From contig OZ024754.1 in assembly GCA_964016885.1 (NCBI GenBank), positions 4,340,001 through 4,404,000 of the forward strand: DNA of 64,000 nucleotides. Reading direction: 5' to 3'. Under the pieces are notes generated by a model. That model had not been told where the DNA came from. It searched no databases and was given only the letters and a program-made list of their open reading frames with translations. Origin of the DNA: Eledone cirrhosa (taxonomy: Eukaryota). This document shows, in pieces, positions 3,021-61,174 of this stretch; position 1 is the stretch's first letter, and each line of letters begins with the position of its first letter. The position numbers and the translations under genes were made by a program.

Positions 3021-3258
3021 ACGGCGATGAATTAGTTTTGCGAGGTTTTTGATATATACACACACACAAACGCATGTGCAAAGAAGAGAAAATAAAATAA
3101 ACAAATAAATAAATATATAAACAGACTAAATAAAGATGGCGTAGAAAATACAATGCAACGGGAGGAAACAATAGCACCACTGACGATGTTGCAGATGTGC
3201 AACGAAAGAACTTTGATAAACTATATATATGTGTTTGTGTCTATATTGTATCAAGTAT

Positions 3259-19640: not shown

Positions 19641-20644
19641 CTGAGAAACCCTTAAAAATGGGATGTCATAATTTTACAGGGGAGTAGATTGGTATAAAAA
19701 GGGTTAAAACGGTTAGTATTATCATTAATAATAATAATAATAATAATAGTAGTAATAGTTTTCTTTTCTCATTTAATATTTACTATAGCAATAACAACAA
19801 CAATAAAAACAAGCCCCCAGGGTGGCAATATTAGTAAGGGGTTAGTCAATGTAATCGACAAAACTAGCGGCAGTACTTGACTGGCTTTTTGTTTTATGTC
19901 CCAACCCCCACAGATACACACACATACACATGCACACACACCCACCCAGGCTCTGGACGCGTGGATAGAGAGATAAATAGACACTTTTTTGTGAAATGCA
20001 CCATCTCACAATAATAATAACAATTTCTGTTATATATATATATCATCATCATCTTTTCTACTACTCCCCACCCCCTCCAAATCTGCCCTTCCCTCAATAT
20101 GTTCTCGTTGCCATTCCCTCCCTCTGCACCATCTCTCTCCCACCCTATTTGCACACATCAGCAAGGTCCTTCTTTTGCCATTGCTCTCTCTTCTATCACC
20201 CCCTCCCCCGCCCCGCCTCTTTTCTCGGTCTACTGCTGGGTCCATGATAAGGCGCACCCTAAACATTTTATGAAGTGTTTCGCGATCGAATTGAGACAAG
20301 AGAGAACCATTTAGTTTTGCTGAGTGTACTACATACTACAAATCTTTACGCGAACGAAAAAAAATGACGATGATATATATATATATATTTAAATATTAAT
20401 ATCTCTCTCACCCTCCCACCCCCTCTCTCACATATATATATGGTGGATTCCTCATGTATATCGGGAGGTGACCACAGTTAAGGAAGTAGGCAATAGGTCC
20501 GTAGAATATAGGCATCATCATTTTATTATGGAAACGACTTCTACAGGACTAGAACTGTTTCATTCGTAAGAAATCATCAGTATTCTTCACGAATGGAATA
20601 GTTCTAGTCCGGTAGAAGTCATTTCTATAATGGTTTCTTATATA

Positions 20645-21825: not shown

Positions 21826-21906
21826 ATATATATATATATATATAAACGAAAATTTAATATAGAAATGGCTTTTAGATGACGAGAACTGTTTCATTCGGGA
21901 TCAATA

Positions 21907-23570: not shown

Positions 23571-24794
23571 TGACGTGTTCTTTATTTCAACATTTCATCA
23601 TTTATCTTCTGCTGTACGTTTACATGAAACTGAGCTCTACTGCCTAAAGTTTATCTTCATTGAAACTATGTTCTAGTCTAACTGAGAAAGTTAACTAATA
23701 AAAGATTTATCTTCTGCTGTTCGTTTACATGAAACTGAGCTCTACTGCCTAAAGTTTATCTTTATTGAAACTATGTTCTATTCTAACTGAGAAAGTTAAC
23801 TAATAAAAGATTCCATTACTATCCCAGATATGTTAATCGAAGGAAGGTTTCGTTTCGTTTCTAATGAGTTAATTCTAAATAGAGGACGAGGAGCTGAGGC
23901 AACGAAGAATCTACTGAGAATAGAAGCCAAACTACTTCATTTTACACCATATTGACTTAATAGTGGATAATTTATTTCATTTCCTGAAACAGCAAACAGT
24001 GAGACTGGATGATCATGGCTGGAACGATTTAGATCATATCCCTGCTTGCTCAAAGCTGACCTGGTGCTAAATAATTGTTTCTACGTTTAGCACAAGGCCA
24101 GCAATTATTCCAGTGTATTACTGGTGCTTTATTTTATCGACCTCGTGACCAAAGATGCATCTGTACAAAGTTACTTAAAACTTGAACTCGTCAGCATTTT
24201 TCTTTTCTTCTTTTCAAAGATGGTTTATTTATCATAGAATACACATTTGGTGATCTCAAGGAGATTTGATTGCTATATCTAGCAAATCAAACGACTGTTT
24301 AGGGACTCCCTCAAGAAGTAAGAAGTTGACATGCCAGACATAGTTATTGCAATGATTTAATGTTACACTATCTTTATATAGACAACTTTCAAAGAAAACA
24401 AATATCATTAAAGAATCTCCTCTCAAGCTCAGTAGTAAGCTGGTTGTTATATTAGGCTGTATCAATGGTACTTAGAAGAAATAACTTACAAAATACAGAC
24501 AGCTGGACTCTGTGTTCAGTTAGGTTTTACTATTGATGTTTTCAGTTTTCTGCTACTATCGATTTGACTTGATTCTCTACAGAATTTTTAAATTATCGAT
24601 CTTAAACTAGTATCCTCAATATTTTCTTTATACCATGAGATCTAATAAAATACAATTCAGTAATTCTGTTTCAGGTGATAGGGTATATAAGTTCCTTGTT
24701 TGGGTATTTCCTGGTGTTTTGTGTAAATGGCATGCATATATTTGAGCATCCTGTCTTATATAAATACAGATATATATATATATATATATATTTA

Positions 24795-24975
24795 TCCCGG
24801 GTTCAATCGGGGGTAACCACAGTAAGTAAGGTACTCAATACATAGCAGAGTATAAATATTTGATATAGAAATGGCTTCTACAGGACTAGAACTGTTTCAT
24901 TCGGGAGAAATCATCAGGGCTTCCTGATGATTTCTCCCGAATGAAACAGTTCTAGTCCTGTAGAAGCCATTTATA
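24795..24975. repeat. Palindromic hammerhead-bearing element (family also at 20531, 21858, 29657, 48250, 59032)
   Basis: Arms ~24868-24918 and 24923-24972; the left flank 24795-24865 is the reverse complement of 59085-59158. Confidence 0.9.
24918..24968 (+). ncRNA. Type I hammerhead ribozyme (canonical core)
   Basis: GGCUUC-CUGAUGA-U[UUC uccc GAA]U-GAAA-CAG uucuaguc CUG-UA^-GAAGCC: stem I 6 bp, GUA cleavage triplet. Confidence 0.85.
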
Positions 24976-25779
24976 TATATATATACTTTCTTTATAATCG
25001 TCCTATCTGTTTAATAAGTCTTACATATTTAAGGTGTGATTTAAAGGAAAATTTAGTAGATAGATCTAACAGTTCAGGAGGTGACAACATATATACTTCC
25101 TTGTTGGTTCATACGATAGCTATCTAGTTAGGCGACCAGAAGAAAAAACGAGAGGGATGAGGGCAAAGGAGAGGTAGAAATTTAGGTACACTGACAAACA
25201 GGAGTGGATCATTTGAACGTTAAAATGCGTTTGGGAATAGGAAATAACATTTGTCTTGGTTTTTTACATTTTGTATTTTTATGGGGGGTTTTTTTTTTTT
25301 TTTCAAATTGCAAGATAGTTAAAGGAAAAGCAGTGACATGTTTGTCAATCAATGATGTCTCCTTGGCTGTCGTTCAGATCTGTGTATCACGGATGGTAGG
25401 CGGGTATTTTGGGGGCAATGCCACGGGGCAATTTTTGTGAAGCAAGTGACTCGCTGATGACAATAGTAGCAGCTGCCTTTCAAGGCCCAGCGGCTGCTTT
25501 AGTTAAAGGGAGGTGTCGTATCGTATGCAATATTTTTTTTATTTTATTTTGTTTTATCTTATTTATTTCTTGTTTTTCTCTCTTTTTCTCGGGTCACGGT
25601 TTTCCTTTTGCTCTCATCAGAGAAGAAATATATAAATGCAAGAAGAAAAGAAGAACCAATGCTGGCCAAAGGCAAAATTGATGAAAAAAGCTGGGACAGG
25701 AAAAAAAAATACGATAGCGAGAGCTTAGCGCACTGAAGAATTTGCGATGCTAACCCCCCCCCCCCCCCCCCCCCATTCA

Positions 25780-29308: not shown

Positions 29309-30381
29309 GGGGAGTGAGGGAGAGAGGGAGAGAAATAGAGAGAGAGAGGGAGAGAGAGAGAGAGAAATAGAGAGAGAGAGGGAGAGGGAGAAAGAGAGAG
29401 AGAGAAATAGAGAGAGAGAGGGAGAGAGAGAGAGAAATAGAGAGAGAGAGAGAGAGAGAGAGAAGAGAGAGAGAGAATTTGAAGTTTGAAAGCGACGACA
29501 ATGTGAAATGGACGGATAAGCAAGTCGGATGAAACAAGGTGTTGTGTGTGTTTACCTAAATTTATTTATATGTTCTGATATTTCGAGTTTAAAAGCTCTT
29601 CTTCCGAGGAAAATAAAAGGGACTAACATTACTAGAGTATAAACATCATGTTTAACATAGAAATGGCTTCTACAGGACTAGAACTGTTTGAATGAAACTG
29701 TTCTAGTCATGTAAAAGCCACTTCTATATATATATATATATGTGCGAGTGTGTGTGTGTCGGGGGGGGGGGGTTGTACTTTGTATATCTAATGATATACG
29801 GTATGTTTACGAATAAACATTTGAAATCCTTTAGCTATGAAGTATGTATATATATATATACACATAAACGCTAATGATATGTGTACGTATATAGATGTGT
29901 CCGAGTACGTGTGTGTGTGTCCACGTGTGTGTGTATGTATGTGTGTGTGTGCGTGTATATGTGTGTGTGCGTGTCCGAATGTGTGTGTGCGTGTCCGAAT
30001 GTGTGTGTGAGTATGTATATGTACGCCTATATATCTATATATATAGAGAGAGAGATATAGATATATATATGCACGCATATTTCCCGTAGCAGAAGCCAAG
30101 TTAATAGAGGATAATAGATGCTGATACTTGCGCATTTCAGAAAATATAGTTCATAAAGACTTGGACAACATAGAAACAATATGATGAATAGCGCTGACCA
30201 TTAGAACAGATGGACGCTTCATCTGTTTATGTCTATAGGCAGGCAACCTCAAAGGATATTGATATAAATATTAAGAGACCACCAGCACGGATACATCCAA
30301 ACACACACCCTCACACGCATGCACGTGTGTCTGCGGTCTCTTTCATATTTATTAGGAAACCACAGGCACACGTGTGTGTGC

Positions 30382-48072: not shown

Positions 48073-48336
48073 CAAATTTAAATAATTTTGAAAACCAAAC
48101 AATGTACTAGAAAGAAAATTAAAATTGCTAAGACAACAACAGGATCTTACATTAGCAAATTTAATAATTCAAAATATTTTCAGGTTTAAAAACCCATTAT
48201 CAACAATTCCTCAAGCAAACTATAACACTCTGTTATGTATGTATATAGAATATAGAAATGCCTTCTACAGGACTAGAACTGTTTCATTCGAAGGAATGAA
48301 ACAGTTCTAGTCCTGTATCAGCCATATTATATTATA

Positions 48337-49253
48337 CTAGCAGTGGTACCCGGCGTTGCACGGGATAAGGTATTTTGGAACGCGGGCCGCCAACAGACCC
48401 AATCGTGGAAAAACTGCATGCGTGGACAATGTGTAAAGAAAATAAACCGAATACTCTGATGGCTGGATAATCTTTAAGATTTTCCTCGATGAAGCAGGAA
48501 AAATGTAGGTTTTCACCTAATGCGGGCCCCAGTGAATAAAAAAAATGAATTTTTTTTATGTGCTTAATATGCTTTGAAATTTCGGGAAAATCGGCTAGAC
48601 GTAACGCCTCAAAAAAGCCCTAAAAAGCTGAAAAAATGAAGTTTTTCACCTAATGCGGGCCCTAGGCCATAAAATAGTTGGATTTTCTTTACTCACGGTA
48701 TGAAGAAGAGACTGATTGATACATAGTTACAATTTCAAGGAAATCAGTCTGACGTAACGACTCAAAAAACACCTAAAAACCTGAAAAAAACGCAGTTTTT
48801 CACCTAGGGGATCAAAAGGTTGAATTTGTTTATGTGGATAACACTCCCTGAAATATAAGTAATACACATGTAAAGTTTGAAAAAATCGGTTGGGTACTTC
48901 TCGAGTTTTAGGGATTCAAACTCACAAACACACACACTTCCTCAGGGAAGTGACGTAATGCAGACAGTCAGACATACAGACAGATATTATAAGGGCCCGA
49001 CGTTATATGTATGTATCTATTATATGTATGTATCTAAAAGAGAAAGACTAAGAATTATAGAGAGAGATCGCTAAATCGCCTAATGCGGTCCCTAGTACAT
49101 TGAAAATTTGACATTGTTTTTGCTCAGGACACTCCCTGAAACATAAGTATTACACGTGTAACGTTTGAAAGCAGTCGGTTGGGTGTTTCTCGAGTTTTAT
49201 GGATTCAAACTCACACACACGCAGACAGACATCCTAAGTCTTATATATATAGA
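48337..49253 (-). mobile_element. Non-autonomous Helitron
   Basis: Minus strand begins A|TCTATATATATAAG and ends with GC hairpin CCCGTGCAACGCCGGG followed by CTAG|T. Inserted between A and T with no TSD; contains internal duplicated blocks. Confidence 0.85.
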
Positions 49254-49627
49254 TAATAAACAGTTATACTCTGCTAGGTATTGAGTAACTTACTGTGGTT
49301 TTGTCTATCTGGATGTGTGTGTGTATGTGTGTGTAACCTCTATCTCTACCTCTGCGTATGGTGTCACTCTCCTTCTTTGTCTGTCTATCTGTATGTGTGT
49401 GTGTATATGTGTGTGTATGTGTGTGTAACCTCTATCTCTACCTCTGCGTATGGTGTCAGTCTCCTTCTTTGTCTATCTGTCTTCTCTCCAATGCTAGGTC
49501 AAGGTGTGACTGTCTCGAGTGCAATGTAAAAGCTGTTGCTTACTATTCATGTGTCCACACTTCCGTTTTTCCTATTTTGTCTGCCTCACTTTCCCTCCCA
49601 CATCTCTCTTCCTCACACTTTTTGCTT

Positions 49628-58273: not shown

Positions 58274-58749
58274 TAAGGTAACATGATATGATGCCTAAAA
58301 AAAACACTTGTGAACAAGAAAGTGTCTAGTCAACATATGATATAAAATATTAAAGGAGAGAGAAGATTGGAAAAAAGGAAGAAAGAGGGAAAAGGAAAAA
58401 GAAGGAGAAGATAACGGAGGAAAGTTTAAGAAGAAAGGAGGAGAGAGAAAGAGAATTTTAAACGGGAAACGCTGTCAAAACTGAAAAACAGCTGTGAATA
58501 ACGGCTGAAAAAATATATACGGCTACTAAATAAATAAATTAATAAATTGATGAGGTTTATGATTGATGAGGTTTATATATATATTATAGATAAATATTGT
58601 GTATATTGTGTATATTGTGTATAGAAGATTATATTAATAAGAGGAATTCCAACTTTGTCTGATTTACTCGTTTTATTTACAATCCTTTAAAATTTATAAT
58701 GGTATTATAATGAAATAGTATGATAGAATATTAAATGTTAAGTGTTAAT

Positions 58750-58788
58750 TGAACAAGTACTTTCATGCTTTCGCAATCTTCAGGTTCA
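58750..58788 (-). ncRNA. Type I minimal hammerhead ribozyme (mirror copy, left arm)
   Basis: Exact reverse complement of 58840-58878. Confidence 0.8.
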
Positions 58789-58839
58789 TAATGTGTGGTG
58801 ACAGTTGAAAATTGCAAACTTGACTGTCACCACACATTA

Positions 58840-58878
58840 TGAACCTGAAGATTGCGAAAGCATGAAAGTACTTGTTCA
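58840..58878 (+). ncRNA. Type I minimal hammerhead ribozyme (right arm of palindrome)
   Basis: UGAAC-CUGAAGA-U[UGC gaaa GCA]U-GAAA-GUAC-UU^-GUUCA; 1-bp stem III with palindromic GUAC tetraloop. Confidence 0.8.
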
Positions 58879-58990
58879 ATTAACACTTAACATTTAATAT
58901 TCTATCATACTATTTCATTATAATACCATTATAAATGTTAAAGGATTGTAAATAAAACGAGTAAATCAGACAAAGTTGGAATTCCTTTTA

Positions 58991-59031
<41 letters not shown>

Positions 59032-59035
<4 letters not shown>

Positions 59036-59078
59036 CTGATGATTTCTCAAGAATGAAACAGTTCGAGTCCTGTAGAAT
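59032..59078 (+). ncRNA. Type I hammerhead ribozyme, same family as 24918
   Basis: AUUC-CUGAUGA-U[UUC ucaa GAA]U-GAAA-CAG uucgaguc CUG-UA^-GAAU; the 5' end abuts (TA)n. Confidence 0.75.
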
Positions 59079-59163
59079 CTCATCTATATTAAAACTTTTA
59101 TACTCTGCTATGTATTGAGTACCTTACTTACTGTGGTTACCTCCGATTCAACCCGGAATAACT

Positions 59164-59219
<56 letters not shown>

Positions 59220-60080
59220 TCATAAAAAACAAGCTTAATTATAACAAGGGGCAAACACCAGATTTAATATTAGGAAATGGGAAAAGGTAAAAATTCAATT
59301 CTAGATGATTAAAGCAGAAAGCTGAAGTTATATAAGAGGGAGACATGATACAGAAGGGGCAGGTTTCATATCTGAAACAGGTGATATGACTATATCGACC
59401 AAACAAGTATGACTACTTAAAACAGTATGTAATCGTAAGAGGACAGTAGAGAGTAGCATGTAAATCTAGATAAGAGTAGAGAGTAGCATGTAAACTTAGA
59501 TAAAAGTAGAGAGTAGAGAGTAGATGAGAGTAGAGAGTAGCATGTAGACCTAGATAAAAGAACATGTAAACACAGACGGACAATGTAAGTAGGAGAGTAG
59601 AGAAGGAGAGAAAGAGAGAAAGACTGATAGACAGACAGACTGATAAATGGATAGACAGAGATGGAAAATATACTGTTATGAAGAGAACGGATGTACAATT
59701 CAGTTAAGTGAAACAGAAAACACAATATGGAATCAAATTAAAAGTAGAAAAACTAAGAGTTATACAATAGCGAATCAAATTAATAAGAGTAAATATAAAT
59801 AAATGATAATTGAATAAACAAGAGAGTATTAGTTGCAGGAGACAGAAAATAACTGAGAAAATTTACAGGAATGAATCATGCAATATTCATAATATTCACA
59901 TATAAAACATCCATATGCAATAGTATATATATGTGTATATATATATATATACTATTGTATAGGTGTATATATATATATATATATACTATTGTATAGGTGT
60001 ATATATATATATATATATATTACTACTACTACTAAAGCTGCTGCTGCTACTGCTACTACTCCTGCTACTACTACTACTAC

Positions 60081-60114
<34 letters not shown>

Positions 60115-60455
60115 TGTATATATATGTAATATATATATACTGTATATATATATATATAATATATATATATATATAATTTTTCACTGAGGTAATAAATAAT
60201 TATATATATATATATATACATAAACCCATGAATTCATATACTTATTTATATGTACATACCTACACATATATGCATACAATTATACATACATACATATATA
60301 TAAATATATACATACTCATATACATATATTTAGATATGTATGTATATATATATATATATATATGAGTATGTATATATATATATATATATGAGTATGTATA
60401 TATATATATATAATGTATATAAACAAATATATATATATATATGCATAGACGCACA

Positions 60456-60512
<57 letters not shown>

Positions 60513-60763
60513 TGGAGAGATATAGGTAAGTAGGGGACATGTTACATACATACACAGAGAATACCTAATGAAATAAAAGACAACGAAAGAAATATGGCGG
60601 AGTAGAATAATAAATCATAACTCAGTTGAAAGTTCCGAGTCAATTGTGAGAATGAATTAGAAAATATTGTTAACGGTAACAATAAGGTTAGACTGAGTTG
60701 AGAAGGCATGTAGGTAGGTAGGTGTGTATATATATATATGTGTATATATATATATATATTTTA

Positions 60764-60801
<38 letters not shown>

Positions 60802-61053
60802 ATATATGTAAGCATATATATACATATATATACATATATATATATGTATATATGTATATATATATCTATCTATATATATACATATATATCTATCTATATA
60901 TATACATATATACAAGCATATATATACGTATATATACATATGTATATATATATACTTATATATAAGCATATATATACATATATACAAGCATATATATACG
61001 TATATATATATATATATATATATATATTCATACACATATGAATATATAAACAT

Positions 61054-61097
<44 letters not shown>

Positions 61098-61174
61098 AGG
61101 TAGTATAAATGTATATATGAGTCGGTGTCTGTGTGAGAGGGCGAGAGGGAGAGAGAGTGTGTGTGTGTGTGTGT

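Follow-up and report, generated by a model that had tools for sequence, protein, structure and literature searches.

Joint positions and a predicted start site in head-to-head hammerhead stubs of a Penelope-like element of Eledone cirrhosa

At position 24918 of the stretch analysed here, a motif resembling the hammerhead ribozyme lies across the turning point of a palindrome, and the question raised by this locus is how such palindromes are formed. The window (the whole 64,000-nucleotide stretch; Eledone cirrhosa, GCA_964016885.1, OZ024754.1:4,340,001-4,404,000) comes from a microsatellite-rich genome of 3.0 Gb. A sequence-only reading of it had proposed that, among six copies of one hammerhead family, four turn back at different points and two do not turn back, and that each palindrome arose independently at insertion, when a cDNA snapped back or switched template at a ribozyme stem, rather than by descent from a MITE with fixed terminal inverted repeats (TIRs). 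Positions within the element are numbered from the C of CUGAUGA (+1), with the 5' strand of stem I at −6 to −1.

Copies in the window and the predicted hammerhead

The 24918 copy lies between (TA)n runs and comprises two arms set head to head. Its features, followed by the other family members in the window, are listed below.

24770..24790, (TA)n left flank, likely target
24791..24978, entire head-to-head insertion (window homology mapping and genome hits)
24791..24918, minus strand, tail-bearing arm, element −1 to +127, without the stem I 5' strand (fold and arm mapping)
24791..24858, minus strand, tail of about 70 nt (+60 to +127), one-sided by the pair counts given below
24917, plus strand, G at −7 where long copies have C; in this single copy the base can also be read as the partner arm's
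24918..24978, plus strand, tail-less arm, element −6 to about +55 (homology mapping)
24918..24968, plus strand, predicted type I hammerhead (MFE fold)
24918-24923 with 24963-24968, plus strand, stem I
24919..24922, 4-nt unpaired palindrome centre (loop)
24924-24930, plus strand, CUGAUGA
24932-24934 with 24939-24941, plus strand, stem II, with U.U at its base
24943-24946, plus strand, GAAA
24946-24949 with 24958-24961, plus strand, stem III
24962, plus strand, predicted cut after GUA
24973..24986, (TA)n right flank, overlapping the arm end
20464..20631, older pair, its minus arm (tail diverged) starting at +1 and its plus arm at about +8 to +12
21849..21902, minus strand, single tail-less arm, +12 to +63
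29631..29738, pair: minus arm from +21, plus arm from about +16, blunt joint
48237..48334, stem II-joined pair: arms from +9 and +16, 3-nt overlap, both short
49253..49300, plus strand, tail-only fragment
59033..59162, plus strand, single arm with tail, −3 to +131; AGATTC subfamily (ORF-linked at other loci)

Six homologous copies do exist, but the 37-mer that the sequence-only reading had quoted for all of them was found in only four (5 matches with at most 3 mismatches; 0 in 100 shuffles), and the seventh family member, the fragment at 49253, had been overlooked. The copies at 21858 and 59032 are more diverged than the others and are, as had been read, single arms with no fold-back. The plus strand at 24918 folds as a complete type I hammerhead and its mirror strand does not, the pair at 20531 turns just past CUGAUGA, and the pair at 48250 has a true stem II joint, the sole one in the window. 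The pair at 29657, for which the same joint had been proposed, has indeed lost CUGAUGA but shows no stem II fold-back. The asymmetry of one long tail and one short arm likewise describes the copies at 24918 and 20531 and part of that at 29657, but not the copy at 48250. The 24918 junction is covered by contigs of three DNA runs, which derive from one sample, may be the assembly's own, and give no independent confirmation.

The 24918-family motif is predicted from its modelled fold to be a type I hammerhead and may be active as a ribozyme. The core (CUGAUGA, GAAA, and NUH, with three stems) adopts type I topology in the MFE fold, with an unremarkable fold energy (z −0.46). Among 9 distinct rows of related sequences, compensatory changes were seen at 2 stem I pairs, with 98% of cells paired, and loop II varies among subfamilies while stem II is constant. 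No Rfam hammerhead model was hit at gathering score, and near 24918 only generic hairpin models were. A type I motif is likewise present in the pLTR of Penelope-like elements (PLEs) (PMC4209133), where Schistosoma is described as having dual opposite-strand motifs 100-700 bp apart as well as many single motifs. In contrast to the minimal motif of that source, which has a G10.1-C11.1 pair, the 24918-type motif lacks this pair and has U.U in its place, closing a 3-bp stem II, together with a 4-bp stem III with an 8-nt loop.

Other structures were noted in the window. At 58721-58900 there is a head-to-head pair from a different hammerhead family, whose minimal motif has a stem III made of palindromic GTAC; both arms of this pair reach upstream of stem I. 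Further CUGANGA...GAAA motifs at 3180, 22457, 25620, 43233, and 49872 belong to other families. A 271-bp palindrome at 490-760, with arms 92% identical, is not related to the 24918 family, and 59883-61122 is a large AT-rich region with many internal inverted repeats.

A large family and its probable Penelope-like parent

The 17 elements found in 80 evenly spaced 10-kb samples correspond to about 60,000 genome-wide (a rough estimate; 95% range 37,000-102,000). Among the matches listed for the palindrome query, at least 40 genome copies align over almost the full 181 nt at 95% identity or more, a query-biased figure. Since a whole-palindrome query returns copies with the same axis, a joint-independent sample was drawn instead, consisting of the first 90 of 839 places where a 42-nt segment lying downstream of the core is matched exactly. 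This left 89 loci after removal of a duplicate (L238, identical to L237); L189 and L202 were left out of pair counts. An adjacent inverted arm is present in 60 of the 89, which form a set of young pairs. In 75/89 the end of the tail arm lies at or beyond +126, the inverted arm ends by +68 in 58/60, and the full tail was found on both arms in none of the 60 pairs. The family consists of dispersed pairs and singles, which does not fit a non-LTR retrozyme (tandem units of 150-500 nt, each with a hammerhead), with one 78-bp array as the exception. This array (L180, G000:C28:30740000-30749000) is 9 kb of wholly tandem 78-bp units, each with a hammerhead and about 20 nt of upstream sequence, and resembles a very short retrozyme-like satellite. 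Many single units of roughly 450 bp, made up of (TA)n, a promoter-like block, a hammerhead, and often the tail, were also seen (L302-L330) and are possible sources of short RNAs.

Following the copies that extend upstream revealed insertions 0.6-7.5 kb long, both tips of which carry a hammerhead. At four loci of the AGATTC subfamily (L161, L162, L171, and L178), one arm starts within an RT/GIY-YIG ORF fragment, continues over a microsatellite-rich region, and reaches the hammerhead, with about 2.6-3.3 kb between ORF and hammerhead. The 3' half of this ORF carries RT-like motifs, recognized by eye, followed by GIY-YIG (Pfam E=0.033, below the cut-off). The L161 ORF has a CxCX5C linker, with CxxC and CxH flanking a conserved E and N near the C-terminal end. 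The N-terminal half is absent from the hammerhead-linked ORF fragments, and no full-length element was seen among the long insertions examined. For the 24918-type subfamily (GGCTTC), the upstream block is 75-81% like the AGATTC parent over about 250 nt, and no ORF of its own was seen in any of five long stretches examined. Further ORF fragments that share 29-53% identity with the parent protein, found in several of the evenly spaced samples, were also observed (L172:5001-7139, L179:4231-5982, L071, L051, L055, L057, and L079); the genome holds many PLE families. L183 and L190 were considered as 5'-complete transcripts running beyond the tail and were rejected, as the downstream sequence common to both has no close copies beyond these two.

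The 24918 family is accordingly best described, on its motifs and on the ORF link of its AGATTC sister subfamily, as the probable hammerhead end of a Hydra-like EN+ Penelope element. The C-terminal GIY-YIG, the CxCX5C linker, and CxxC/CxH near the end are shared with Hydra-clade EN+ PLEs (Craig et al. 2021, PMC8557442, section 11 for the linker and CxxC/CxH), as are the hammerhead near the 3' end, the (TA)n targets, the inverted 5'-truncated copy, and the one-sided tail. The last two are given there as the typical Penelope footprint, and both the insertion pattern and the element type were thus already known. The tail is longer here (about 70 nt versus 30-40), the ORF-to-hammerhead stretch alone is about as long as or longer than the Hydra elements (less than 3 kb in all), and, unlike in that clade, most copies are head-to-head stubs of 100-200 nt.

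Where the arms end and how they are joined

The 5' ends of the 89 tail arms, which were chosen regardless of joint, fall at −10 to −1 in 43, at +1 to +32 in 35, and further upstream in 11. The density of ends per nt is 5.9 at −7 to −1, 1.1 inside, and 0.07 upstream. Among the 59 arms that reach −5 (the stem I start), 40 stop at −5 to −7 and 15 pass −10. Tallies of near-start, stem II, −7 base, TATA, single-arm, double-start, and long-spacer rows, here and below, were made by hand from listed matches. Palindromes turning just upstream of CUGAUGA (near-start) number 4,902 genome-wide; the first 50 of these have 30 different spacers, and 6 of the 50 have the 24918 joint. Palindromes with at most 16 nt between the stem II 3' strands number 583, and the first 50 listed include 8 stem II joints and 6 perfect TTCGAA joints.

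The 60 pairs are joined by an overlap (26), bluntly (5), through 1-6 nt of filler (22), or through a longer insert (7), and only 3 have a stem-type joint. Which arm reaches further varies: it is the tail arm in 28 pairs and the tail-less arm in another 28, the latter by at least 3 nt in the 5' direction in 26 of the 60. Zero-loop joints were found at L186 and L244, at 6 of the first 50 of the 583 loci, and at 7 loci in the long-spacer variant search described below. Joints lying far upstream and inside the ORF also occur, and the 24918 joint was found repeatedly, in two subfamilies and with stem I carried by one arm or by the other.

The arms within a copy diverge by 8.1%, compared with 9.8% between copies with the same loop type and 13.9% between any copies, in the 29 pairs that remain after 31 of 60 were omitted for short overlap; by this comparison, which the sequence-only reading had asked for, the arms have diverged nearly as far as separate copies have, and conversion between arms after insertion was rejected as a strong homogenising force. 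In these 29 pairs, the arms agree in subfamily in 21, are ambiguous in 7, and have different loop types in 1 (L203). Subfamily marks are common to both arms, and no arm-specific fixed difference was seen. Tail divergence indicated that internal joints are not older (5.8% versus 6.2%, p=0.88; 19 versus 23 copies).

These data agree with the sequence-only reading that the family is not a fixed-TIR MITE: the outer 70 nt are unpaired on one side, and the spacers differ as described, while target-site duplications are unreadable in (TA)n. They also agree that the palindromes form one by one, most likely at insertion, as internal joints are not older and the 24918 joint is found in two subfamilies and both orientations. 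As to clustering of axes at stems I and II, there is a pile-up at stem I and a minor hot spot at stem II that is no stronger than non-stem microhomologies. Ribozyme stems explain few turning points.

Predicted start site and proposed origin

A transcription start is predicted at the very position of the stem I pile-up. Among long copies (100 listed rows of 4,551 matches, less 3 inverted-arm matches), 75 of 97 carry TATAAATA with its first base 30 nt ahead of stem I, a placement shared by four variants of that stem. CCAAT-like boxes were seen by eye, and the step at the first base of stem I is C followed by a purine, i.e., pyrimidine-purine. In the 82 long AGATTC copies listed, the base at −7 is C in 80, T in 2, and G in 0, whereas at joint ends where it is unexplained by the partner arm it is G in 48 of 56 listed rows. 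Among the first 50 of 214 double-start joints, G is present on both arms in 41, 33 of them with the form C[A/T]G. The GGCTTC subfamily has G at −7 in 52 of 82 listed rows, C[A/T]G recurs there as filler at 5 loci, and its single arms beside TA have G in 31 and C in 1 of 46 listed rows. G precedes internally truncated arms in only 2 of 21. In a long-spacer variant, in which the TATA spacer is 2-3 nt longer, a start at −10 was counted for the arms of 13 of 32 loci in a search conditioned on passing −9, with a partner-supplied G in 10 of the 13; this is a hint that the 5' limit follows the promoter. Loop II does not mark this variant.

The extra G may represent copying of a cap; for L1, an untemplated G at the 5' end has been interpreted as possibly reflecting such copying (PMC9341517). 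Other sources of the base can be named. A stem I snap-back of 1-2 nt in the AGATTC subfamily would also yield an extra C and the following A, and a few of the fillers match this. In the GGCTTC subfamily, many of the G's end a filler copied from the partner arm, and annealing over 1 bp could give the 24918 joint with no cap. The GG form, which has no extra base, is about as frequent in the first 50 near-start loci as the GGG form (7 versus 6 exact, 9 with variants). Only the cap reading accounts for both subfamilies with a single assumption. A start-site and extra-G pattern for PLEs was not found in searches of open-access papers, and this pattern is the new, testable part of the present analysis.

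We propose that the head-to-head stubs are probably pairs of cDNAs of sense RNA, extended from both ends of a cut in (TA)n, run to the capped start, and joined by microhomology. The element's enzyme would cut the (TA)n tract, and both ends would likely be extended on a sense RNA predicted to be capped and to start at the first base of stem I (−6). Priming of one cDNA would take place at about +131, the end of the tail, and that of the other at about +59, some 70 nt deeper in the element. Both would run toward the RNA 5' end, where many would arrive and others would stop earlier, and those at the start would gain a C opposite the cap, read as the extra G. The two cDNA 3' ends would then be joined head to head through 1-6 nt of microhomology or a short filler, and long arms would derive from RNA starting further upstream. 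The fuller statement has a somewhat better than even chance of being correct: that a TATA promoter starts the RNA exactly at the first base of the hammerhead, that tens of thousands of stubs consist of two run-off cDNAs apiece, each arm ending in a copy of the cap, and that the inverted repeats of PLEs arise when sense, capped, uncleaved RNA is primed twice and not by antisense self-priming.

The 5' inversion of L1 arises by twin priming, in which a second primer anneals internally and the arms have no sequence overlap. Two primers and an inverted part joined by microhomology would be common to both systems, but in the present family the two arms would be copies of one and the same stretch, each begun at its own fixed site. 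The extra G at full-length 5' ends of L1 (PMC9341517) is a further likeness. A parallel to the proposed priming is Poseidon PAc of Anolis (Frangieh et al. 2024, PMC11167929), in which the protein cleaves both strands and extends them, initiates at two internal sites that delimit the tail, and works on uncleaved RNA; the likeness extends to AT-rich targets and a retained, uncleaved hammerhead. The PAc ORF starts inside the hammerhead, whereas here no frame opens there. With the Penelope elements of A. vaga (Arkhipova et al. 2013, PMC3846280) and D. virilis (Schostak et al. 2008, PMC2377424) the present family shares the inverted pLTR, a palindromic inverted junction, and, as predicted here, a pLTR-internal promoter. 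A putative TATA plus Inr is described in the Adineta vaga pLTR (PMC3846280), while the D. virilis promoter is TATA-less with a start upstream of an intron (PMC2377424), in contrast to the TATA 30 nt before stem I seen here.

The palindromes of those two elements were read as self-priming on antisense RNA (PMC3846280, PMC2377424), and our evidence points instead to two sense run-off cDNAs. Antisense self-priming accounts for head-to-head polarity and palindromic joints, but it predicts neither that both arms end at a sense-strand, TATA-linked base with a nonparental G nor that either arm can be the longer, and it is the least probable of the explanations weighed here. The snap-back of a single cDNA, or its template switch, at a ribozyme stem, followed by copying of itself, is refuted as the main route and is very improbable overall. 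Stem II joints exist (48250 in the window, L125, and the 8 listed loci), L181 has a stem I joint with a 6-nt overlap, and some AGATTC fillers fit a short stem I snap-back. Against this, stem-type joints are rare, the tail-less arm is often longer at its 5' end, and joints at TTCGAA and at other microhomologies outside the stems occur about as often as those at stem II. Single-cDNA snap-back was excluded as the main route because either arm can be longer: we infer that a fold-back copy cannot contain sequence missing from its template and that a zero-loop joint cannot be an intramolecular hairpin.

Double priming may instead have occurred on a long RNA, with the folded hammerhead setting the 5' limit, as a stall of the RT or a stop of a 5' exonuclease at stem I, and with terminal transferase adding the extra base. 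The limit falls exactly at the base of stem I, and the 15 of 59 arms passing beyond −10 imply that longer templates exist. This explanation is nevertheless unlikely: stem I should already be open once its 5' strand is copied, the limit base has TATA at −30 and a pyrimidine-purine step, G is rare at internal ends, and, more faintly, the start shifts in the long-spacer variant. Palindrome centres are deletion-prone, and a few palindromic masters amplified as units (MITE-like or as hairpin RNA), with other axes arising as later central deletions, could explain the many near-identical copies with the 24918 axis and the share of this joint among near-start loci. The diversity of spacers, the recurrence of the 24918 joint in two subfamilies and both orientations, the subfamily marks common to both arms, the age of internal joints, and the joints far upstream and inside the ORF all argue against masters, for which the remaining probability is slight, only just above that of antisense self-priming.

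The double-priming proposal bears on an older question, as the origin of PLE inverted copies is stated to be unresolved in PMC8557442, and PMC3846280, which proposed antisense self-priming, left the matter open. From thousands of joints that share a fixed 5' limit, a TATA box at −30, and a nonparental G on both arms, predictions follow at the level of single bases for the start site, the cap, the sense template, and the two primers, and these can be tested by CAGE and in the in vitro system of PMC11167929. If the proposal is true, the stubs would be a genomic record of PLE inverted repeats made by double priming on sense, capped, uncleaved RNA.
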